Below are positions 9,131 through 47,073 of a DNA stretch of 64,000 nucleotides, one piece after another; positions within the stretch are counted from its first letter, which is position 1, and each line of letters opens with the position of its first letter. Origin of the DNA: Holosporales bacterium (GTDB taxonomy: Bacteria > Pseudomonadota > Alphaproteobacteria > JAJTHO01); the NCBI GenBank assembly GCA_046338525.1, contig JBKDWF010000055.1:21276-85275 (forward strand), read 5' to 3'. Made by a program: the position numbers and the translations under genes. The notes under the pieces are model-generated. The model was not told the origin of the DNA, ran no database searches, and worked only from the letters and a program-made list of their open reading frames with translations.

Positions 9131-10023
9131 TTCCGCACCAAAATCTCCCGCAGCCCGCCCCTCTTCCCCGCATCGGCATTAATCCGGCGGGTAGCCGTGA
9201 TGCGTTCGATACAATAATCCGCATATAGCTGATCAAAAAAGGGATCATCCGCCGTGTTGGTGGGATCGGCGTTACTAAGCATTTGCAAGACACCTTTTTT
9301 ATCCAACGTCTTGAACATCGCTGCCAGCCGGCGTTGCTCAACATCATCAAAGGATGTTTTAGCATACTGATTGAAGACGGATGTTTTGTTTAAAGGTCGA
9401 TACGGCGGATCGTAATAGATAAAGGTCTTACCCTCAATACATTCAAGACTCTGGGAAAAATCTCCTTGCTGGATAACAGTGCCCTGCAGCGCTGCTGAAA
9501 CCGCCCGCAGGCGTTCCGGTTGGACAATACGGGGTTGCTTGTACCGCCCGTACGGAACATTGAACTGGCCCTTGCTGTTCACCCGATACAAACCGTTAAA
9601 GCAGGTTTTGTTGAGGAACAGCGTCTGGGCCGCTTGGGTTAGAGTGTCGCTGGTCTTCGTGTTATACGCCTCCCGCATCGCGTAAAAAAACGCCGCACGG
9701 GCTGGGCCGTCGCACCCTAAAAAAGCGTCACTGATAGGTGTTCGATCAGCAATCAACGCCTCCACGTGATCCCGAATGGCTGTGTACACCCCTACCACCG
9801 CCGGATTGGCATCAAAAAGATATGCCCGCTTGATTAATCCCCGGCTTGCTAAATCAAAAAACACCGCCCCGCCGCCGACAAAAGGCTCAATGTAGGTGTT
9901 TATCTCCCCTTTGAGCAACGCCGCTGGGTATCGCTGGGCGAGGATCGGCAACAACTGCCGCTTGCCCCCCGCCCATTTGAGCACCGGGGCAGCCCTGTTT
10001 TGCGCTGGCTTTTTTAGCGGCAC
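9103..10023 (-). CDS. Dam-family (alpha-class) DNA N6-adenine methyltransferase, orphan
   Basis: LKWAGGKRQLLP, EPFVGGGAVF, NGLYRVN..GQFNVPYGRYK and catalytic DPPY motifs in Dam order; no restriction gene adjacent; 3' end overlaps rlmE convergently by 28 nt. Confidence 0.8.
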   Translation of the reverse strand: MPLKKPAQNRAAPVLKWAGGKRQLLPILAQRYPAALLKGEINTYIEPFVGGGAVFFDLASRGLIKRAYLFDANPAVVGVYTAIRDHVEALIADRTPISDAFLGCDGPARAAFFYAMREAYNTKTSDTLTQAAQTLFLNKTCFNGLYRVNSKGQFNVPYGRYKQPRIVQPERLRAVSAALQGTVIQQGDFSQSLECIEGKTFIYYDPPYRPLNKTSVFNQYAKTSFDDVEQRRLAAMFKTLDKKGVLQMLSNADPTNTADDPFFDQLYADYCIERITATRRINADAGKRGGLREILVRNYTNPSATR

Positions 10024-12207: not shown

Positions 12208-12870
12208 GTGATAGCTCTCGATATTATTATTTTTGCCGTGGTGGCAGCGTTTATTTTCTGGCGTTATCGTTCGGTATTAGGCCAGCGCAGTGATGATGAT
12301 GTGACGCGCCCGCCCCCAAGCCAGACGCAATCCCACAAAGGCAAGGACGATGGCGTGGTCATCCTTGATCGCGGCCAATTTCGGGAAGTGCGCCCCACAC
12401 CCCCAGCCCCCGCGCCAGAATCCTTAGCTGGAGCATTGGCCGCCATTTCCGCAAAGGAAAAAGATTTTTCGGAGAAAAGCTTTCTTGCCGGCGCACGGCA
12501 AGCTTTTGGCATTATTGTGACCGCCTTTGCCGAAGGCAACACGGAGACATTGCGTCGTTTTCTGGATGATACCGTTTTTGCCACCTTTGAACGGACGATA
12601 AAAACACGCCAACAGCGTGGCGAGACGGTACAATTCACCTTAGAAGACATTCGCACGGCAGAACTACTCGAGGCTAAACTCGACGGCGATGCCGCAACCA
12701 TCAAGGTTGAAATTCTCAGCGAACAACAACAGATTCTCCGCGATGCCGCAGGCACTATTATCGAGGGTGATCCAGACAGAATCAATGAAGTTCGGGATAT
12801 CTGGTCGTTCCGACGCACTCTTGGCAGTAACGATCCAACGTGGCGGTTAGTCGCAACAAAGGCTTCTTAA
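12208..12870 (+). CDS. Tim44-like domain protein (N-terminal TM anchor, GTG start)
   Basis: N-terminal TM helix, Pro-rich linker, C-terminal ~150-aa region with the Tim44-like pattern common in alphaproteobacteria. Confidence 0.7.
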   Translation: MIALDIIIFAVVAAFIFWRYRSVLGQRSDDDVTRPPPSQTQSHKGKDDGVVILDRGQFREVRPTPPAPAPESLAGALAAISAKEKDFSEKSFLAGARQAFGIIVTAFAEGNTETLRRFLDDTVFATFERTIKTRQQRGETVQFTLEDIRTAELLEAKLDGDAATIKVEILSEQQQILRDAAGTIIEGDPDRINEVRDIWSFRRTLGSNDPTWRLVATKAS

Positions 12871-12973
12871 TAAAGGGCACCTCTATACTCCTTGCACATG
12901 AAGAATGTGCGAGCGGTATATCAAGCTTATTTCTAGGGCTATCGGTGTCTTCAGGCTCTGCGCTCGCAACCCT

Positions 12974-15922
12974 TTAGGGTTCTTGCTTCGCTTTCGGCGC
13001 ACCAAACCAATCAAATACCCCCCGCAACACACCCGGCGTTAAGGCCGTTAGCGGGTTCACGCTAATCGAAGGATTATCTGTTGTACCACTCGCCGTGTAC
13101 CGCATAGCCAAAATGCCTTCCCTTCTGTTGTTAGTTAAAAAATCACCCACAATTGGAATACCGCCAATAATCTGGGTGACGATATAAGCAGGCATAACGG
13201 CTCCCTTTAAATTGAGTTCATTACCCTGCAATCCTATCGTCCCGGCAGCTAAAAAGCCCAGCGATGACCCGGTCATTTTCATATCATCAAGAAACAATGT
13301 GCTTTTATCGAATCTGCCATTAAAGGTCATGATAGAAACTGGCAGACCCTCCCCCATTAACAAATCAATAGGCGCGGTAATAGAAGCTACAGACAAAATT
13401 CTTCCCAGCAGCGGCGCACGCCATAAACCAAAATCTTTTATTGTGCCTTCAAAAGCCCCCGGGTCTCCTAAGCGTAGGGTACCCACCAACTCGCCACCCC
13501 GCATATTAGAATAAAGACCCAGTGCGGCTAAGATACTGCCCGCGTCTTTTGCCTCCAAGCTTACTATATTTTGTTCTAACTTAGCATTAAAAGGAAAAGA
13601 ACGATCGTTTTTGACGATGCTGCCTTGCAAGTTTGCCGCTACTGTCTGACCGTGTCGCCGCTGATACCGAAAAACCACTTTGTGCGCATTAGCTCCTGTA
13701 TTATTATTTGTTTTCAATAAATCCGTCGTTATATCTATATCCAATAGTTGCGGGGTTTTATCCGATTCACTTTTACCACCAGACATTTCCAGAGGCCGCA
13801 ACTGCAAGCTTTTAAAACGCCCCAAGATAATAACACCGCCAGTCTTAGGAATACGGTAACTTAAGCTGCCGTTCGTATCGCCTAACTGCAAAACACTAGT
13901 TCCAAAAAATTGAATATTACCATCATACATTTGGCCTCTACCCCGCAACACATCCTTGCCGCTTTTCAGCACAACCGATTCTATCTGTGTTCCTCGCCCA
14001 TTTATCATTAAATTTGCTTCAAGACTTGCCGGAACATTAATGGGCTTATCCCACACTATCCAAGGCATCTCCAGCGTGGCGCGCAGCATATCCGCACGCA
14101 ATGCCACGGATGAAGCGCCGGAAGCCTTACGCTTCCACGTCACCGTTGTCCCCACTACCCCACGCAGGCTTTGCCCCACATTAATCCCTAAGGATAATAA
14201 TTGCTCTGGCATCAGGTTGGCGGCATTGATAACAGCCGTTTCTGGTGTTGCTGTTTTTCCGGTAAAATCCCGTGCCCAAACAACCTCACTAGGAATCCCA
14301 TTCAACAACCCACGACCATTCAGTTTTGCGCCTTGCGGCGTTACAGAAAGCACCCCAGTAAGTTGTTGTAACCGAAACGCGCTTTGCGGCACGGGAAAAC
14401 CAACGTCTTTTAACTGGCCATTAACATCAATCTGCAATTGACTCACAGGGAGATCGTTCAAGGGTGGGAAACGGGTAAAAAAACGTGTCTCACTGCTCCC
14501 GGTTATTTTTCTAGGATCAAGACCAAAGATATCAGCATAATGTAGCGGAGGCGCATTAACAATAGTCATGTGATCGGAAAGATTGCCGCTTAAATTCAAA
14601 TCAATAACGACTTCCTGGTTATCCGTATCAAGCCCAAGAAAATTCACTGTGCCGCCAATAATTCTTACCCCCTGACATACACCCCCATCGAGGACAATAT
14701 CAAAACTGTTGGCATCAAATGCTGCATTCCCACTTGTTTGCTGCACGGATGGCAGTTCCCCCAGATACTGCACGGTAAAACCTTCAAGACGCATCCCTCC
14801 CTTCAACTCTTGCACAGTGAGTTCTGTTCCTGCTGCTGTCTTATGCACACCAAGGCCTAAGTGAACATGCGCCGTACGAATAGTTCCCGCATCCAAATTG
14901 GTAAAAATCCAAACCCGAGGATTGGGGGCCAAACCTTCCGGCCAAAGCTGACGCAAACTAGAAAAATCAAGAATATCAAGCGCAACATGACCTGTAATAG
15001 CCGCCTGATGCACAGCGCCATCCCACACTGCGGCCACCGATGCCCGTAGGGTTCCTCCTGCAAGACGAAGCTGAGCATCATCAACACGAACCGAACGCTT
15101 TACAAAATCTACCAACATTGTCAGGGTTCCAGACCCCACGACCGTAGAAACCCCAGCCGTCGGCTCTGCTGATACTAATGCCACCGTTAACTGGGGTAAA
15201 ACACCACCCACGCTTGCACCACTCAGTGTCATCTGCACCGGCACAGCAACTGAACCAACCTGTAACGCTCCTGCCGCAGCACCGTTAACCCCTACCGCCG
15301 AAGCCTGTATCGTCCCAGTCATCTCTTTTAGACTGGCCAATGGGGCGGCCATTTTTTCATCAAAAATCCATATTTGGGCGTTATTTACTGTCAACATCCG
15401 CATCGGTAGTTTTGCAAGCACACTGGTAAACCAAACACTTGGATCCAAAACAAATAATGGCGAGGTCTCATTGCGTCGATCAAAAAAAGAAGGTTTTTTG
15501 TCAGCATGCAACACCACACGCAATACCGGCTGTTCCACGGTTAAATGAGTAATTTCATATCCGCGATTATAATTGAAACCGTAGTAAAACATACCGTGCA
15601 ATGCCTGCCACGACAGCCCGCTAGCATTTTTCTCAGCACCTATCGTCGCATTTCCAGAATATATTTCAAAAGTCTGGGCTTTTAAATCCCAGATAAGACG
15701 CACATTTTGCACACTTACTTGCTCTCCCGTCATTACCTCTAACGCCAAGCTTACAAACCGATCCAAGCCAGTGCCCATCAAAGGCCTGCCTGTGCCAAAA
15801 ATAATAGAAACCAGCGTTATCACCAGCAACGCGTTTAAAGTTTTACCCAAAAAACCAAAAATAAGCAGCACGACCGAATCAGAAGCACACCGACAAAAAC
15901 GCAAAAAAGCCCGCATGAGCAT
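12974..15922 (-). CDS. Large AsmA-like/YhdP-family membrane protein (DUF3971-type), 982 aa
   Basis: N-terminal TM anchor; ~1000-aa beta-rich body; conserved C-terminal region (GEGLPVSIMTFNG...AMRYTASGTTDNPSISVNPL) typical of YhdP/AsmA_2 C-termini. Confidence 0.6.
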   Translation of the reverse strand: MLMRAFLRFCRCASDSVVLLIFGFLGKTLNALLVITLVSIIFGTGRPLMGTGLDRFVSLALEVMTGEQVSVQNVRLIWDLKAQTFEIYSGNATIGAEKNASGLSWQALHGMFYYGFNYNRGYEITHLTVEQPVLRVVLHADKKPSFFDRRNETSPLFVLDPSVWFTSVLAKLPMRMLTVNNAQIWIFDEKMAAPLASLKEMTGTIQASAVGVNGAAAGALQVGSVAVPVQMTLSGASVGGVLPQLTVALVSAEPTAGVSTVVGSGTLTMLVDFVKRSVRVDDAQLRLAGGTLRASVAAVWDGAVHQAAITGHVALDILDFSSLRQLWPEGLAPNPRVWIFTNLDAGTIRTAHVHLGLGVHKTAAGTELTVQELKGGMRLEGFTVQYLGELPSVQQTSGNAAFDANSFDIVLDGGVCQGVRIIGGTVNFLGLDTDNQEVVIDLNLSGNLSDHMTIVNAPPLHYADIFGLDPRKITGSSETRFFTRFPPLNDLPVSQLQIDVNGQLKDVGFPVPQSAFRLQQLTGVLSVTPQGAKLNGRGLLNGIPSEVVWARDFTGKTATPETAVINAANLMPEQLLSLGINVGQSLRGVVGTTVTWKRKASGASSVALRADMLRATLEMPWIVWDKPINVPASLEANLMINGRGTQIESVVLKSGKDVLRGRGQMYDGNIQFFGTSVLQLGDTNGSLSYRIPKTGGVIILGRFKSLQLRPLEMSGGKSESDKTPQLLDIDITTDLLKTNNNTGANAHKVVFRYQRRHGQTVAANLQGSIVKNDRSFPFNAKLEQNIVSLEAKDAGSILAALGLYSNMRGGELVGTLRLGDPGAFEGTIKDFGLWRAPLLGRILSVASITAPIDLLMGEGLPVSIMTFNGRFDKSTLFLDDMKMTGSSLGFLAAGTIGLQGNELNLKGAVMPAYIVTQIIGGIPIVGDFLTNNRREGILAMRYTASGTTDNPSISVNPLTALTPGVLRGVFDWFGAPKAKQEP

Positions 15923-23168: not shown

Positions 23169-23621
23169 TTGATGACAAAACCCCAAACTTCTGTAAACCG
23201 GATTATCGGTGTCCTCAACGGACCAAACCTCAATTTACTCGGCACCCGTGAAACAGCAATTTATGGATCGCTGACGTTAGAAGGGATTAAGGCACTCTGC
23301 GCGGAAACAGCTAAAGACACCGGCTATGCCATTGATTTTCGCCAATCCAACAGCGAAGGGGAATTGGTCAACGCCATTCAAGAGATGGTCAATACCACCA
23401 GCGGCCTAGTCATCAACCCAGCCGCCTATACCCACACCTCCGTAGCTATTCTTGATGCCCTGCGGGCTTACCCTCACCAAGTGATCGAGGTTCATCTCTC
23501 CAATATCTACCAGCGGGAGGAGTTTCGCCGTCATTCCTATGTGTCCTTACGAGCCGACGGTGTTATCAGCGGCTTAGGCGGGACGGGGTATAGGTTGGCG
23601 ATACTGGCGTTGGTGCGTTAA
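23169..23621 (+). CDS. aroQ: 3-dehydroquinate dehydratase, type II
   Basis: Type II DHQase motifs (ILNGPNLNLLGTRE, GLVINPAAYTHTSVAI, HLSNI). Confidence 0.9.
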   Translation: MMTKPQTSVNRIIGVLNGPNLNLLGTRETAIYGSLTLEGIKALCAETAKDTGYAIDFRQSNSEGELVNAIQEMVNTTSGLVINPAAYTHTSVAILDALRAYPHQVIEVHLSNIYQREEFRRHSYVSLRADGVISGLGGTGYRLAILALVR

Positions 23622-23631
23622 GAAAAAAAGC

Positions 23632-23739
23632 CTTATACCATTTTGCAATCACTTGATTGCAAAATTCTTCGCTCAAACGCCGCGCGGGCTTGCCGCTTTG
23701 CGTAAATATTTTCTACATATTGAACGCAAAGCGGTATTA
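23632..23739 (+). repeat. MITE-like 108-bp dispersed element, copy A (TWATACC terminal inverted repeats; internal palindromes CATTTTGCAATCA-CT-TGATTGCAAAATG and GCTTTGCGT-N20-ACGCAAAGC)
   Basis: ~105/108 identity to copy B at 43065..43172 and reverse-complement match to copy C at 46313..46420; its last 3 nt supply the stop codon of the ferredoxin gene. Confidence 0.8.
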
Positions 23740-24006
23740 CAAACCCGCCACCAATTTATCCACATCTTCATGCGTGCGCACCGTTATCCATTGTCCCGTC
23801 GGGTAATCCACCACCGTCACCCCCATAGCACAGCGATCGAGGCATCCAGCCCGGTTGATACGAACGCCTTTGATACCCTTCTCTTTCACTTGAGCTTTGC
23901 AGTAATCAAACAGAGCCTCCGCCCCCTTGCTAGCACAACAGCCTTGCGGGGCATCGTCTTGGCGACGATTAAGACAGAAAAAAACATGATGTTTCAGGGT
24001 TGTCAT
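23737..24006 (-). CDS. Thioredoxin-like [2Fe-2S] ferredoxin (start MTTLK overlaps glmU stop as ATGA)
   Basis: Four Cys in CxxxxC...C..C arrangement (FFCLNRRQDD...GCCAS, AGCLDRCAMG) typical of thioredoxin-like 2Fe-2S ferredoxins. Confidence 0.6.
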   Translation of the reverse strand: MTTLKHHVFFCLNRRQDDAPQGCCASKGAEALFDYCKAQVKEKGIKGVRINRAGCLDRCAMGVTVVDYPTGQWITVRTHEDVDKLVAGL

Positions 24007-25298
24007 GCTTTCTTTTTCCATCCCGAAATAATTTTCTGTACCGCTCGGGCAATACCCAACGCGCCGCTAGGCACATCTTTGGTAATGACGCTGCCCGCAC
24101 CTACAGTGGCTCCATCGCCGACAGAAACAGGAGCCACTAAGGCCGTATTGGAACCGATGAAAGCATTTGCACCCACCGTTGTGCGATGCTTTTTCGCGCC
24201 ATCATAGTTGCAAGTAATCGTTCCCGCGCCAATATTTGCGCCGGCACCAATGATGGCATCGCCTAGGTAACTCAGGTGGTTTGCCTTAGCCCCGGCCCCT
24301 AGGACGGCATTTTTTATCTCGACAAAATTACCAGCATGAGCATCTTCAGCAAGAACAGCCCCAGGCCTCAAACGGGCATACGGCCCCACCACAGCATTTC
24401 GACCGACACGAGCCTGTTCCAAATGCGAAAATGCCCGCACCCGCGCCCCGGCCTCCAACACCACGCCGTTGCCCAGCACCACAAACGGCTCAATAGTAAC
24501 ATCAGCGGCGCATACCAGATCAGCGGACAGCCACACCGTCTCCGGCGCAGGCATCGTCACCCCATCCTCTAGCAGATGATGCCGCATCCGGCGCTGGAAA
24601 ATCGCCTCAGCCACGGCCAGTTCAGCACGGCTGTTCACCCCCAGCACATCCTCCGGATCGGATGCCCGCACTGCGGCGGCTCCATACCCGGCTTGCACCA
24701 CCAGACTAACCGTATCTGTCAAATAATACTCGCCTTTGGCGTTTTTGTTGGATAATTTTGGCAGCACCTGAATCAAGGCATCACGACGAAAAGCCATAAT
24801 CCCAGCATTGCACAACCGAATAGCCCGCTGTTCCGCCGTCGCATCGGCATATTCTATAATCCCCAACAGCCGCGCTCCATCGGTATACAGGCGGCCATAC
24901 TGAGCCGGATCGGCAGGCTCAAACCCCAACGCAGCAACACAACTATGATCCAATGCCTGTAACAGTTTCTGCATCGTGGCAATAGTCAGCAACGGCGTAT
25001 CGCCGTATAACACTAAAACATTTGCTCCCTTACTAGGTGCCTGTGCCAACGCCGTTTGCACCGCATGGCCGGTTCCCAAACGTTCTCGCTGCACCACTGT
25101 TCGCACCCCATCCGGCAGAGGATGGGCAAAATCCTCGGCCACTACCACAGTAATACTGGCCGGGTTTAGTTGCGCCGCGGCATGCAAAACATGATCGAGC
25201 AACGCTCGCCCTGCCAATAAATGTAGCACTTTTGGTAAGGCCGAGCGCATCCGTGTGCCCTTGCCGGCGGCCAAAATAACGATATCCGTTGCCGTCAT
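24003..25298 (-). CDS. glmU: Bifunctional UDP-N-acetylglucosamine pyrophosphorylase / glucosamine-1-phosphate N-acetyltransferase GlmU
   Basis: N-terminal LAAGKGTRM nucleotidyltransferase motif; C-terminal left-handed beta-helix hexapeptide repeats. Confidence 0.9.
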
Positions 25299-39304: not shown

Positions 39305-39400
39305 TTAAGCAAGCCCATAAACAGTACCGCAAGAAAAAAGTCCTTCCTAAAACGAGCGGATGAAAAACGCGTACCAATGCTAAACCCTCGGTCGTCTTCG

Positions 39401-39470
39401 CGAGCGCCGGAGGCGCGTGGCGATCCAGAAAAATAATGTCTGCTGGATGACCACGCGCCTCCGGCGCTCG
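39401..39470. repeat. Perfect 20-bp inverted repeat (CGAGCGCCGGAGGCGCGTGG / CCACGCGCCTCCGGCGCTCG) with nested 6-bp inverted repeat (ATCCAG/CTGGAT) in the 30-nt spacer
   Basis: Direct inspection; ~200 nt upstream of the ahcY start, no adjacent T-run. Confidence 0.8.
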
Positions 39471-39687
39471 TCATGACAGAGTTTCTTTTTAAAAAATTGA
39501 TCTCATTGCAATTAATGCGGGGGCTTTGTTGCATAATTCGCAAGCAGTTGATAACAAAAATGAATTTTTGTGGCATTTTTACAACAACTTCCGCCTAAGC
39601 CAAGGGCAGCTTAAAACTTATGCAACAACACCGTGAAAAGCATGAATATAAATAATTGGTTTTAATAATTTTAAACGCCCTCACCCC

Positions 39688-40975: not shown

Positions 40976-41320
40976 GGGACGCACTATAGCGCGTTGCGTA
41001 ATTAACGGTAAACTTTAAAAAGTCTTCAGCGCGCTATACGTTATTGGTCACTACGCCATGTTGTGGCGGCGGCAGTCGGGAGGTTTTTTACCGGAAGTTG
41101 CGGAATAAAAGACTGCTAGTTGCATCATTAGTTATGTTTCATTCTGAAACGCCCTCACCCGCCGCCTTTGGCGGCGACCTCTCCTTTCGGCCTACCCTAT
41201 GCACACAAGTCCTAACATTGGCTCTTTCCGAGCATTAGCGGAGTATAACGGCGCCGCCCGTTGACACCTTCTCCCGCGTAGCGGGGGAAGGTGTGATAAC
41301 TGGAATCCACCCATTGGAAA

Positions 41321-42084: not shown

Positions 42085-42987
42085 TCATGCAACCTTGACA
42101 TCCGGCACGGGTTTGCCTTCCAGCACAGCCTTAATGGTAAGACCAAGATTAGCCGGGGATGGAGAAACAACGATGCCAGCCCGGCGCATAGCCTCCATCT
42201 TAGAAGCTGCATCGCCCTTGCCACCCGCAATAATTGCCCCAGCATGGCCCATGCGCTTACCAGGAGGAGCCGTAACCCCAGCGATAAAACCCGCCACAGG
42301 TTTTTTAATGTTGCTCTGCATTAAAAACTCCGCCGCCTCTTCCTCCGCGCTCCCGCCAATTTCCCCAATCATAATGATTCCTTTGGTTTCAGGGTCGGCC
42401 AAAAATAATTCGAAAGTATCGATAAAGTTGGTGCCGTTAACGGGATCACCGCCAATGCCAATACAGGTAGTCTGACCCAAGCCAGCCGCCGTAGTCTGAG
42501 CCACTGCCTCATAAGTCAAGGTGCCAGAACGAGAGACAATGCCAATGCTACCACGCTTGTGAATATGACCAGGCATAATGCCAATCTTGCATTCGCCGGG
42601 GGTAATAATACCAGGACAATTTGGCCCGATCAGGCGGGTTTTGCTTCCCGTCAAGGCGCGCTTCACCCGCACCATATCAACAACTGGAATACCCTCAGTA
42701 ATACAAACAACCAATGGCACACCAGCATCAATGGCTTCCAAAATCGCATCCGCCGCAAAGGGTGGCGGGACATAAATAACCGAAGCAGTGCAGCCAGTCT
42801 TAGCCCGCGCCTCGTGCACCGTATCAAAAACCGGTAAATTCAAATGGGTAGTACCGCCCTTGCCCGGCGTTACACCACCCACCATTTTCGTGCCATAAGC
42901 AATAGCCTGCTCAGAGTGGAAAGTTCCCTGAGCACCGGTAAACCCCTGACAAATAACGGTGGTATTTTTATCAACAAGAACGGCCAT
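42085..42987 (-). CDS. sucD: Succinate--CoA ligase [ADP/GDP-forming] subunit alpha (start placed at MAVLVDKNT)
   Basis: CoA-binding and ligase-CoA domains with catalytic His loop (SRSGTLTYE) and GIGGDP. Confidence 0.9.
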
Positions 42988-43064
42988 TGGTACTTCCTCT
43001 ATTTTGATGCGCAGGCACCATACTGGGTTGGTTTGCATCTGGCAATCTTCTTGTGGGAAGTCTT

Positions 43065-43172
43065 CTTATACCATTTTACAATCACTTGATTGCAAAATGC
43101 TTCGCTCAAACGCCGCGCGGGCTTGCCGCTTTGCGTAAATTTTTTCTACATATTGAACGCAAAGCGGTATTA
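43065..43172 (+). repeat. MITE-like 108-bp dispersed element, copy B (same orientation as copy A)
   Basis: 3 mismatches to copy A across 108 bp; lies between the sucD start and the RND permease stop. Confidence 0.8.
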
Positions 43173-43207
43173 TACGAGGGTTGGGGAAATACTTGTGGGA
43201 CAAACCA

Positions 43208-46200
43208 TTAGTCTGCCAATCTACCCTCTTCCACCACAACCCCACTTTTTCTTCGACTGAGACGCTGGTAAAAAACCGGAACAATGAACAAGGTAAACAA
43301 CGTGCCAATGCTCATACCCCCAACAATAATCCAGCCGATAGCAGCACGACTTTCAGCCCCTGCTCCACTTGCTACTGCCAGTGGCAATGCCCCCAGCACT
43401 GTAGCCGCCGTAGTCATAAGGATAGGACGCAAGCGAATAGTCGCCGCCTCAACCACTGCCGTCCTTGCATCACGACCTCTGTCCCGCAACTGGTTGGCAA
43501 ACTCCACAATCATAATACCATTTTTGGCAATCAAACCCACTAGAGCAACTAGACCTATCTGAGTGTACACATTGATACTCCCCCCCGTTCCCCATACGGC
43601 CAACAACGCACCAAACAACGCCAACGGCACAACCAATAAGATAATTAACGGATCGCGCCAACTTTCAAACTGCGCCGCCAGCACCAAGTAAATAAACAAC
43701 AGAGCTAGGGTAAACACTAGGCCGAGACTACTGCTGGCCTCTTTAAATTCCCGGCTTTGCCCAGCGACGTCTGAAATAGCAGCGGCATCAATCTTTGTTA
43801 ATTCTCTGCGCAAAAAGTCTAACCCTTGGCCAATCCCCGTCCCCGGGGTGAGGCTGGCGGTAATTGTTACAGCACGCAACTTATTAAAACGATTAAGTTC
43901 TCGCGGCGTTACGCCTTCACGCACTCGCACTAGATTTTGCAAAGGAATCATCGCCCCGCCACTACCTCGCACATACAAAGCCGTCAAATCATCGGGGGTG
44001 CGGCGGCGATCATCAGCCAACTGAACAATCACGTCGTATTGCTCACCGTTGCGTTTAAATCGAGTAATAGGCGTACCACTAAGCGCAGCATCAAGGGTTG
44101 TTCCAATATCCGACACAGCCACCCCCAAGGCAGCACTTTTCTCCCGGTCAACACTCACTTTCAGTTCGGGTTTATTGCGTTTTAAATCACTATCTGGTGT
44201 GCGAAACAGTGGGCTTTCCCGCATTCTGCCCAGCAAGGCGTTGGCTACCTTTTCAAGCTCTTCATAACTACTGCTACTTTGTATCACAAATTCAATAGGA
44301 AGAGACCTTGCTCCTTGACCCAAGGAGGGCGGGTTAATGGGAAATGCCAGCACACCCGGCACTTGCCCTAAACGAGGCCGCAGCGCCTCAACAATAGCAG
44401 AGGAATGTCGGGATCGCTCATCCCAATCTTTGAGACCAAGGACACTGTACCCCTGAACAATAGTGGGGAAACCCACCACCGTAAAGTTCCATACCGCTTC
44501 AGATTGGCTTTGAAGAATCTTTTCCACTTGCTGTAAGTAGGTATCACTGTACCAGACCGTGGAACCTTCCGGAGCCATCGTAACAGAAAAAATTACCCCG
44601 CGATCTTCTATCGGGGTCAATTGCCGCGGAAGAATACTAAACAACAATAACGCCAACCCGGCGCAAATGCCAGCACCCATAAGTACCGCCCGTTGGTTGG
44701 CGAGTATCCAGATTAGGCGGCGTTTATACCCCGCCTCTAGGCGTTCCAGCAACGCCTCCACCCATTTGCCAAAACGATTCGTGCTGTGCAAATCTTTTGC
44801 CCGCAACATCCGAGCGCACATAGTAGGCGTTAAGGTCAACGCCACAAAACCGGAAATCAACACCGCCGCGGACAACGTCAGGGCAAACTCAATAAATAAA
44901 CGCCCAGTCTTACCCGTAGAAAACGCCATCGGAGCAAACACCGCCGCCAAGGTCATGGTCATGGCAATCACGGCAAACGAAATCTCCCGCATACTTTTGA
45001 TAGCCGCATGCAAAGGATCAAGACCGCGCTCTAAGTGGCGATAACTATTTTCTAAAACTACAATAGCATCATCAACGACCAACCCAATGGCAATAACCAT
45101 TGATAACATAGTAAGAGTATTGATAGTAAATCCAGCCGCATACATCAGGGTCAACGCCCCAATCAATGAGACAGGAATCGCCACCAGCGGCACCACCGTC
45201 GCCCGTAGCGTACGCAAAAACAAAAATGTCACCAGTACCACGAGCACCGTAGCCTCAACAATCGTATGAAACACATTACGAATCGACTGACGAATAAAAA
45301 CCGATGCATCGTAAGCAATATTAATCCGCATTCCTTGGGGCAATAATTTTTCAATATCCGGCAGTATTTTACGCACCTGAGATGAAATCTCCAACGGGTT
45401 GGCTATCGATTGTTTGATAATACCTAAGGCAATAGAATTACGATTGTTATATCGGGCAATCTGACGCTCATCCGCTGGACCGTAAGCAACTTTTGCCACG
45501 TCTTTAAGGCGCACGATGGAACCACTAGCATTGCTTCGCAAAATAATATTTTCAAAATCTTCTGGGGTATTCAAATCGGTTTGAGCCAACACAGTAAATT
45601 CCCGGCTTTTTCCTTCAATCCGTCCAGCGGGAATTTCAATATTTTGTTGATTAAGAGCACTTTGCACGTCACTAGGGGTAATTTGATACGCAGCCAACCG
45701 GTCGCGATCGAGCCACACCCGCATGGAATAACGCCGCTCAGCAAACAACCGTACTTGAGCCACACCGTCCAAAGTTTGCAAGCGATCCTGAACAATCAAA
45801 TCGGCCGCCTCGGAAACTTCTAAGGCACTATGCACCTCACTATTAACATTAACCCACATAATAGGGGTGGCATCAGCCTCTACCCTTGCAATCACTGGAT
45901 CATCAATATCATCAGGCAGGCGAGCACGGGTACGAGCAACCCGATCGCGCACATCATTAGCCGCACCATCGGGATCACGGCTGAGTCGAAATTGTACCGT
46001 AATCTGGCTTGATTCCGCTCGATTAATAGCGCGAATAAAATCAATACCTTCAATACCAGAAAGCGCATCTTCAAGAGGTTTTGTAACCTGAGATTCCATC
46101 ACCTCCGCTGAAGCCCCGACATAGCGGGTATCCACCGTCACCACCGGGGAATCAATATTGGGATACTCCCGCACGGCCAAGCGCGTCGCCGCTACTAAAC

Positions 46201-46276
46201 CAACAAGCACCAATAATAAATTGAGAACCGTGGCAAAAACAGGACGACGAATAGAGAATTCAGGAAGAGAGACCAT
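43208..46276 (-). CDS. RND-family (HAE1, AcrB/AcrD/AcrF-like) efflux permease, orphan (no adjacent membrane-fusion or outer-membrane partner); start placed at MVSLPEF
   Basis: 12-TM RND topology with two large periplasmic loops; N-terminal AcrB-like motif (MVSLPEFSIRRPVFATVLNLLLVLVG); ~1020 aa. Confidence 0.85.
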   Translation of the reverse strand: MVSLPEFSIRRPVFATVLNLLLVLVGLVAATRLAVREYPNIDSPVVTVDTRYVGASAEVMESQVTKPLEDALSGIEGIDFIRAINRAESSQITVQFRLSRDPDGAANDVRDRVARTRARLPDDIDDPVIARVEADATPIMWVNVNSEVHSALEVSEAADLIVQDRLQTLDGVAQVRLFAERRYSMRVWLDRDRLAAYQITPSDVQSALNQQNIEIPAGRIEGKSREFTVLAQTDLNTPEDFENIILRSNASGSIVRLKDVAKVAYGPADERQIARYNNRNSIALGIIKQSIANPLEISSQVRKILPDIEKLLPQGMRINIAYDASVFIRQSIRNVFHTIVEATVLVVLVTFLFLRTLRATVVPLVAIPVSLIGALTLMYAAGFTINTLTMLSMVIAIGLVVDDAIVVLENSYRHLERGLDPLHAAIKSMREISFAVIAMTMTLAAVFAPMAFSTGKTGRLFIEFALTLSAAVLISGFVALTLTPTMCARMLRAKDLHSTNRFGKWVEALLERLEAGYKRRLIWILANQRAVLMGAGICAGLALLLFSILPRQLTPIEDRGVIFSVTMAPEGSTVWYSDTYLQQVEKILQSQSEAVWNFTVVGFPTIVQGYSVLGLKDWDERSRHSSAIVEALRPRLGQVPGVLAFPINPPSLGQGARSLPIEFVIQSSSSYEELEKVANALLGRMRESPLFRTPDSDLKRNKPELKVSVDREKSAALGVAVSDIGTTLDAALSGTPITRFKRNGEQYDVIVQLADDRRRTPDDLTALYVRGSGGAMIPLQNLVRVREGVTPRELNRFNKLRAVTITASLTPGTGIGQGLDFLRRELTKIDAAAISDVAGQSREFKEASSSLGLVFTLALLFIYLVLAAQFESWRDPLIILLVVPLALFGALLAVWGTGGSINVYTQIGLVALVGLIAKNGIMIVEFANQLRDRGRDARTAVVEAATIRLRPILMTTAATVLGALPLAVASGAGAESRAAIGWIIVGGMSIGTLFTLFIVPVFYQRLSRRKSGVVVEEGRLAD

Positions 46277-46312
46277 AAATAAACCTAGCCTAGCTTCATT
46301 GCAATGTAACGC

Positions 46313-46420
46313 CTTATACCGATTTGCGTTCAATATGTAGAAAAAATTTACGCAAATGGGCAAGCCAGCGCGTCGTTTGAGCGAAGCGTTTTGCAATCAA
46401 GTGATTGCAAAATGGTATTA
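46313..46420 (-). repeat. MITE-like 108-bp dispersed element, copy C (inverted relative to copies A/B)
   Basis: Reverse-complement alignment to copy A with the same internal palindromes; ends 5 nt before the adk stop codon. Confidence 0.8.
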
Positions 46421-46425
46421 AATGA

Positions 46426-47073
46426 CTAGCGAGCAATAGCTGCTTCAATGCGCACCGCTATTTCAGGCATTTCACCCACGCCGTTAACTGTAGCAAGAAT
46501 GCCCTGACGTTCATAATAAGGCAATACAGGCATCGTTTGATCCCGATACACTTGCAACCGTGCCGCTACTGATGCGGGGGTATCGTCTGGGCGACGAAAG
46601 AAATGGGTGGTACCACATTGATCGCACACGCCCGGAACCTTTGGACGATGGGTGCGATCATGATAGCCAGCACCGCAACCCCGGCAAGCAAAACGACCAG
46701 CAATTCGATCGATAATCTCAGCATCATCAACCTGCAACTCCACCACCTTATCAAGACGTGTGTTGCGCGATTTCAACATTTTATCCAACGCTATCGCTTG
46801 GGCTTCCGTACGGGGAAACCCATCAAGAATAAAACCATTAGCACATTCTGGACGATCGATCCATTCAGCGATCATGTCAACCATAAGGCTGTCTGGCATA
46901 AGGCCACCACTGGTCATCACCGACGCGGCTTGCTCCCCTAATGGTGATCCAGAAGACACCAACGCCCGCAACATATCCCCCGTAGAGAGCTGAGGAATCT
47001 TGTACCGCTGCTCCAATAAACGGGACTGAGTGCCTTTTCCGGCACCGGGGGGGCCAAAAAGGATAAGTTTCAC
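46426..47073 (-). CDS. adk: Adenylate kinase (long form with zinc-binding lid)
   Basis: P-loop GPPGAGKGTQ, NMP-binding region, CRGCG...CDQCG lid cysteines. Confidence 0.9.
   Translation of the reverse strand: MKLILFGPPGAGKGTQSRLLEQRYKIPQLSTGDMLRALVSSGSPLGEQAASVMTSGGLMPDSLMVDMIAEWIDRPECANGFILDGFPRTEAQAIALDKMLKSRNTRLDKVVELQVDDAEIIDRIAGRFACRGCGAGYHDRTHRPKVPGVCDQCGTTHFFRRPDDTPASVAARLQVYRDQTMPVLPYYERQGILATVNGVGEMPEIAVRIEAAIAR

Follow-up and report, generated by a model that had tools for sequence, protein, structure and literature searches.

A dispersed, formerly mobile two-hairpin repeat at gene ends in an uncultured Holosporales lineage

Introduction

Three copies of a short non-coding repeat, one of them inverted, lie at gene ends within 64 kb of a Holosporales genome. 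This raises the question of whether the repeat is mobile, what kind of element it belongs to, and how its copies came to sit against stop codons. The original prediction, drawn from the sequence of this stretch (the whole 64,000 nucleotides, hereafter the window), had read the repeat as a non-autonomous MITE or a structured REP-like family at gene ends. Little is known of the Holosporales, intracellular alphaproteobacteria of which most are uncultured, and our literature search found no description of a repeat family in them.

Results

The repeat unit and its copies in the window

All three copies of about 108 bp were present in the 64-kb window at the places where they had been reported (Table 1), and a profile search with nhmmer returned exactly three full copies in the 64 kb. 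Copies A and B matched at 105 of 108 positions, agreeing with the roughly three mismatches predicted, and copy C matched the other two at 93-94 of 101 core positions (pairwise identity of the three cores, 92-97%). Copy C was indeed in reverse complement, but its predicted coordinates were off by 1 base, since it is 46314-46420 that aligns with 23633-23739. The 25-nt core of the palindrome occurred 0 times in 100 dinucleotide shuffles.

Alignment together with 30-nt flanks showed that similarity begins and ends abruptly, at T(W)ATACC and GGTAT(W)A. The TTA triplets that had been described around the copies were present, but the unit is better written as a 101-nt core, TACC...GGTA, with a T-W-A triplet on each flank. 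The imperfect inverted motif at the ends was also present, but proved longer than predicted: an imperfect inverted repeat of roughly 16 bp makes up the termini (TACCNNTTTGCNNTCA), and the left end TACCATTTTGCAATCA agrees at 12 of 16 positions with the reverse complement of the right end, TACCGCTTTGCGTTCA. The repeat is non-coding, and the ORFs that span the elements are only long, overlapping, spurious reading frames.

Table 1. Positions and flanking triplets of the repeat copies (window coordinates; flanks of copies outside the window are given by locus)
Feature	Position	Strand	Left flank	Right flank	Remarks
Copy A core	23636-23736	+	TTA	TTA	hairpin 1 arms 23640-23651 and 23654-23665
Copy A left flank triplet	23633-23635	+	TTA		11 nt past the aroQ stop codon (23619-23621)
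Copy A linker	23666-23692	+
Copy A hairpin 2 arms	23693-23703, 23724-23734	+
Copy A right flank triplet	23737-23739			TTA	TTA on +; on - the TAA stop of the ferredoxin-like ORF (23737-24021)
Copy B core	43069-43169	+	TTA	TTA	flanks at 43066-43068 and 43170-43172
Copy C core	46317-46417	-	TAA	TAA	flanks at 46418-46420 and 46314-46316, read on the - strand
33-nt derivative	12886-12918	+			internally deleted subfamily 2 member, TACTCCTTGCACATGAAGAATGTGCGAGCGGTA; fourth family member in the window
L019 copy			TTG	TTA
L020 copy			TAA	TTA
L021 copy			TAA	TAT
Other flanks					TAA (L010), TCA (L029), TGA (L016)

Two other small repeat families were seen in the window. One (39377-39477) is a near-perfect palindrome, GTCTTCGCGAGCGCCGGAGGCGCGTGGCGATCCAG..., with 35-nt arms that are 86% complementary and a 14-nt loop; it lies in a gene-poor stretch, and a half copy (92% over 53 nt) adjoins the element copy in L020. 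The other, CACCTTCCCCCGCTACGCGGGAGAAGGTG, follows the phasin gene (41231-41300) and is a REP-like palindrome rich in G+C; a related copy sits at L010 545-590 between the element and an IS3.

Two hairpins joined by a conserved linker

Each element is built from two palindromes, 26 and 42-44 nt long, that carry the tag TACC/GGTA. The first, hairpin 1 (H1), is a palindrome of 12-13 bp with the arms ATTTTGCAATCA and TGATTGCAAAAT. Its 12-bp core was perfect in copy A, and 12 of 13 positions paired in every window copy, exactly as predicted. The predicted second stem-loop, CCGCTTTGCGT-N20-ACGCAAAGCGG (H2), was likewise recovered, with one compensatory change (C-G to A-T) and one mismatch in copy C. 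Each terminus doubles as the outer arm of a subterminal hairpin, and the linker that joins the two hairpins is conserved (CTTCGCTCA..GCGCG..GCTT).

We folded the repeat as RNA in both orientations, a check that the original prediction had proposed. Both strands folded far better than shuffles, with z-scores of -3.2 to -6.6, and DNA folds of both strands likewise exceeded their shuffles by far. The fold was always two separate hairpins plus the linker and never one stem made by the termini.

Searches for a known function of this structure gave little. Rfam returned 0 matches at gathering thresholds, the best sub-threshold hits being chance matches to miRNA hairpin models. There was no canonical terminator with a U tract, just a weak alternative stem with G-T pairs at background frequency, and no promoter-like site above shuffle background. 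A known RNA family, terminator or promoter is therefore unsupported. The IHF consensus WATCAANNNNTTR was perfectly matched within hairpin 1 of every family-1 copy and was absent from subfamily 2, described below. GANTC was absent in all 8 element variants checked. Inspection of the sequence showed neither RYYYAAC nor GTTRRRY, the core sites of an integron attC, and an attC site was rejected as well.

The 4-nt loop of hairpin 1 varies. It is ACTT in the window (23645-23663), AAGT in L016 (899-917), which is the same loop inverted, and AATT in L003, L019 and L021, while the stem is unchanged amid this flipping and variation.

Position relative to genes

Copy A lies between the convergent genes aroQ (23169-23621, + strand) and the ferredoxin-like ORF (- strand), and supplies the stop codon of the latter as had been predicted (Table 1). 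Copy B lies between the stop of an AcrB-type RND permease (43208-46267, - strand; stop at 43208) and the start of sucD (43038 or 42987), and copy C between the adk stop (46426-46428) and the RND start (~46267). The predicted distances, 35 nt past the RND permease stop for copy B and 5 nt from the adk stop for copy C, were both correct. Orientation relative to transcription was inconsistent, which together with the missing canonical terminator upholds the prediction that the repeat is no simple terminator.

Every copy is intergenic and at a gene 3' end, and four lie between convergent genes. In four of the six full copies (A, L019, L020 and L021) the neighbouring gene takes its stop codon from the flanking TAA. 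We do not claim this sharing as proof of special targeting, because spacers are about 10-100 nt long and stop codons already make up a large share of the tolerated T-W-A sites.

The gene order around copies B and C (42085-47073) is unusual. The ribosomal-protein/secY cluster ends with adk, followed by a solitary RND permease that adjoins no membrane-fusion or outer-membrane gene, and then by sucD without sucC. In the more distant relatives L038 and L039 the RND gene follows a membrane-fusion partner at a different locus.

Copies at unrelated loci

Proteins identical to those of the window turned up in many freshwater metagenomes of JGI and in MAGs that NCBI labels Holosporales bacterium. The search for further copies that the original prediction had suggested succeeded at unrelated loci. 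Our scan of the JGI metagenomes yielded three, with flanks unlike those of the window: between rplI and a convergent 142-aa ORF (L019), after priA (L020) and after an unnamed 175-aa ORF (L021). A scan of species-representative genomes gave one true match among 8, at the contig end of the Holosporales MAG JBKCUA01 (L016). The 10 kb beyond the right end of the window held no further copy. Distinct sites number at least nine (A, B, C, the deletion derivative, L019, L020, L021 and two in L016).

About 6 kb past the right end of the window (L040 16270-16345), a sequence that looks tRNA-like by eye was seen in the 313-nt spacer after proS, in which contig L041 ends.

Copies were 92-99% identical to one another, and the L020 copy matched copy A at 100 of 101 positions, whereas orthologous coding DNA of the sister species was only 80-83% identical. 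Every strain of the window's species retained copies A, B and C. In L010 and L029 the sequence on one side gives way to unrelated DNA precisely where the element ends, at T(W)ATACC or GGTAT, and contigs L016, L030 and L031 end inside the element. Whether they are assembly chimeras or real recombination, these breaks and flank switches show that more copies with other flanks exist.

An empty site and the flanking triplets

Comparison of filled and empty sites, another check proposed at the outset, revealed an empty adk-RND site in L037, a relative in which the RND protein is 90% identical and the flanking DNA 80-83%. Its spacer is 44 nt long and reads TAG-TCATT-TA-GGTCGATAC (TCATT-TA-GGTCG), while the filled site of the window reads TAG-TCATT-TAA-[TACC...GGTA]-TAA-GGCGTTAC (TCATT-TAA-[core]-TAA-GGCG). 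The net gain in the window is the core plus 3 nt. It follows from the empty site that the RND gene adjoined adk before copy C arrived. A composite transposon, in which the inverted copies B and C flank the RND gene, was rejected on this ground, as the sister lineage has adk and RND directly adjacent without C.

The flank pattern is T-N-A, mostly T-W-A. The triplets of the two sides were equal in A, B and C and unequal in L019, L020 and L021; the middle base agreed between sides at five of six sites, a statistically weak match with a chance probability of about 0.11. The equal triplets of the window copies fit a duplication of 3 bp of T-N-A, which insertion probably made. The L037 site has TA where a TAA duplication predicts TAA, so that a TAA duplication fits it if a 1-nt indel in the diverged spacer is assumed. 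Alternatively, T-W-A could be the outermost part of the inverted repeat. The TA target-site duplication that the original prediction had entertained did not fit L037: with the element taken as CC...GG and its outermost TA duplicated, the empty site would need two 3-nt indels.

Site A differs from a plain insertion: in the sister species, DUF2256 and DPRP genes separate the ferredoxin-like gene from aroQ, and the ferredoxin-like ORF exceeds that of the window by three codons. Set against L032 10279-12036, window positions 23622-23739 hold copy A alone where L032 has DUF2256 and DPRP (photolyase-related). GCA_041442895.1 has a DPRP-aroQ spacer that exceeds that of L032 by 138 nt and could hold an element copy. 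At site B, one strain (L026 ~9879-9900) has lost 26 nt between short direct repeats (GGTTGGGA-like), made up of the final base of copy B together with its flank triplet and adjacent spacer.

Subfamilies, a hybrid and a deletion derivative

A second element, beside the partial copy in L016 and spaced 7 nt from it, defined subfamily 2. Its plan is TAC(T)-hairpin-CTTCGCTCA-GGCGCAGCGCG-GCTT-hairpin-GGTA, with stem sequences that differ from those of family 1 and with inverted termini matching at 11 of 14 positions. When it was aligned with the covariance model of the family, pairing in its H1 was 96%, and both partners had changed in 6 of 11 pairs. None of 500 shuffles reached this covariation, and slid registers came nowhere near it. 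It is thus the pairing of the palindrome, which the original prediction had read as a possible regulator operator, and not its sequence, that is conserved in subfamily 2. For H2 of subfamily 2 the covariance-model alignment kept the register and understates the pairing, so we used folds instead; these gave a stem of 11-12 bp, TACCGCTCGCA/TGCGAGCGGTA, in both subfamily 2 and L021. The L021 copy is a hybrid, with H1 and linker from family 1 and H2 from subfamily 2.

In the 33-nt derivative of the window (Table 1), the left and right ends have been joined across the repeated ATGTGC. Its neighbours are the convergent Tim44-like (12208-12870) and YhdP-like (12974-15922) genes, and its sequence was the same in other strains. 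Subfamily 2, the hybrid and this derivative show that stem sequences vary and modules recombine while pairing and linker are kept.

In the sister species, L032 12005-12015 reads GAGCGGTATA, identical to the right end of subfamily 2, just past the DPRP stop beside aroQ. This may be what is left of an element end, or it may have arisen by chance (~0.04 matches expected in 20 kb).

Search for a mobilising enzyme

No autonomous element with matching ends (TACCNNTTTGC...GCAAANNGGTA) was found in the loci examined, where the transposases seen nearby were IS3 and IS630 only. The IS630/Tc1-like partner suggested by the original prediction was not borne out, since IS630 in these populations is flanked by TA and carries ends (TTGCCTTCCCCACTAAGGTTTG) that are unrelated to those of the element and do not match them. 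The IS3 in L010 starts with TGAACTACCCC and does not match either. BLAST of the alphaproteobacterial plasmids in PLSDB returned no homologous repeat.

The IS630-family element (HTH_Tnp_IS630 + DDE_3) was located at L027 11925-12261 and also in L045-L048. In one strain an IS630-family insertion lies downstream of the phasin gene, where the window has none.

Discussion

Mode of mobility

The repeat is a dispersed, formerly mobile family in an uncultured Holosporales lineage. This is shown by its multi-copy dispersal, sharp boundaries and empty site, and by its compensatory subfamilies, hybrid and deleted derivatives. The general claim of the original prediction, a non-autonomous MITE or a structured REP-like family at gene ends, is thus upheld by the copies at unrelated loci and the empty site.

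With moderate confidence, we favour a family of non-autonomous MITE-type elements inserted at T-N-A triplets. A transposase supplied in trans would recognise the palindromic ends, and the unit would insert at T-N-A triplets, mostly TTA or TAA, and duplicate the triplet, a behaviour resembling that of the IS5-family and PIF/Harbinger 'Tourist-like' elements. In a compact genome the tolerated T-W-A sites would be almost confined to the short spacers at gene 3' ends, TAA stop codons included, and a 3-bp duplication at TAA would regenerate the stop codon. With tolerated sites at gene ends and the stop regenerated, copies would accumulate there in either orientation. We infer the length of the duplication, the family of the transposase, and a role of the hairpins in recognition by the transposase, as opposed to one in the host. 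Counting against the MITE reading, a transposase that binds the inverted termini alone needs no co-variation of the inner arms.

That co-variation belongs among the grounds of the main rival, mobilisation of a REP/BIME/REPIN-like unit via its single-stranded hairpins, which we consider unlikely overall. Two inverted REP-type palindromes would be spread by a Y1 (HUH) RAYT or an IS200/IS605-type enzyme that recognises them as single-stranded hairpins and makes no target duplication, and T-W-A and TACC would mark sites of cleavage or targeting. The two ends fold into hairpins of their own and not into one long terminal stem, and the compensatory changes that keep the hairpins paired between subfamilies are expected if the folded form is the substrate. 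The modules are shuffled (the L021 hybrid, the L016 pair 7 nt apart, and the 33-nt derivative, which resembles a solitary REP), and flank triplets are sometimes unequal. However, the triplets are equal on both sides in all three window copies, and no Y1 gene was seen in any locus examined (~150 kb of the lineage). The left flanks vary (CTT, TTA, GTA, CTG), so a fixed IS200-type left target was rejected. The feet of the hairpins carry neither GTAG nor CGTC but TACC/GGTA; a GTAG or CGTC tag marks the large REP superfamilies (PMC3733652).

It is doubtful that the element is primarily a host-serving, possibly domesticated module, such as an RNA 3'-end stabiliser, a bidirectional attenuator or a putative IHF site in hairpin 1, with its spread being secondary. 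All copies lie at the 3' ends of genes, and four are placed between convergent genes, as such a module would show, but selection against insertions elsewhere explains this location equally well. The RNA folds well in both orientations (z-scores again -3.2 to -6.6), yet there is no U-tract terminator, no promoter-like site above shuffle background and no Rfam family. The perfect IHF consensus in hairpin 1 of every family-1 copy is not matched in subfamily 2, and although all strains of the species retain A, B and C, the sister species manages without the element at the adk-RND site.

We attach equally little probability to a further reading, in which the element is not a passive MITE. It would then be a two-hairpin module that moves via recognition of its single-stranded hairpins or is targeted to TAA stops, whose insertion would regenerate the stop and append a conserved, RNA-structured 3' cassette predicted to bind IHF. 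If true, this would be a 'safe-harbour' repeat that targets stop codons, and in a compact, endosymbiont-like genome the host would be using it to punctuate transcription. A family of small RNA genes in many copies, two-stemmed and with the conserved single-stranded linker as seed, would agree with the conserved linker sequence and the stems that co-vary between subfamilies, but is very improbable given no associated promoter or terminator, no Rfam match, both orientations relative to neighbouring genes, copies that abut or share stop codons, and sharp, inverted, transposon-like boundaries.

Significance

The family does not overturn the understanding of bacterial MITEs and REPs. It marks assembly breakpoints and chimeras in Holosporales MAGs and is a ready marker for strain and lineage history. 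It also shows a small element persisting in a compact genome by sitting on stop codons, and its subfamilies, with compensated hairpins and a conserved linker, are a natural experiment on what the transposition machinery or the host reads.

Comparison with known systems

The MITE-type reading that we prefer places the element near the Tourist-like MITEs and the IS5/PIF-Harbinger group, which likewise encode no protein, are small, end in inverted repeats and have T-W-A (T-N-A) on both sides. Bacterial MITEs measure about 100-300 bp, a range that takes in the 101-nt core. The IS1031 and IS427 groups of the IS5 family use T-N-A targets. The TACC... ends of the element, however, are not known to resemble IS5-family ends. 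No IS5-family partner was found for it in the loci examined, and support for its duplication is partial. Canonical Harbinger elements, which are relatives of the IS5 family, duplicate 3 bp (PMC12730594).

REP, BIME and REPIN sequences share with the element short imperfect palindromes, inverted pairs with linkers, mosaics and an extragenic position at gene ends; RAYT-associated palindromes measure 20-40 nt. They differ in that the element is without the GTAG/CGTC tag, no RAYT was seen in the loci examined, its copy number is apparently modest, and its equal flank triplets suggest a duplication.

The Correia/NEMIS elements of Neisseria are also MITEs near genes, 100-155 bp long, with an IHF-site motif in some forms, and they are co-transcribed with neighbouring genes (PMC2229807). 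However, Correia termini are 24-26 bp, pair together and have a TA duplication, while the element forms two separate hairpins and a duplication of its outermost TA misfits. Rickettsia palindromic elements (RPE) are about 100-150 bp long, with inverted termini, and come from an intracellular alphaproteobacterial lineage. They insert in frame inside protein and RNA genes, whereas copies of the element are extragenic and at most share a stop codon. Correia, RPE, ERIC and RUP all fold by pairing of their termini and in this differ from the element.

The closest published architecture, compared by description only, is that of the CcrM-associated intergenic repeats (CIR) of Caulobacter and Brucella (Chen and Shapiro, 2003, reviewed in PMC2229807). 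Membership was rejected, since the GANTC loop motif that defines CIR is missing from every copy of the element. CIR were reported without terminal inverted repeats, which the element has. CIR are otherwise alphaproteobacterial and intergenic, about 110 bp long, with two stem-loop arms and a linker; they have TA at their termini and a mobility mechanism that is not known (PMC2229807), and in all of this they are like the element. The element is a previously undescribed small mobile repeat family of a known, MITE or REP-like, kind.
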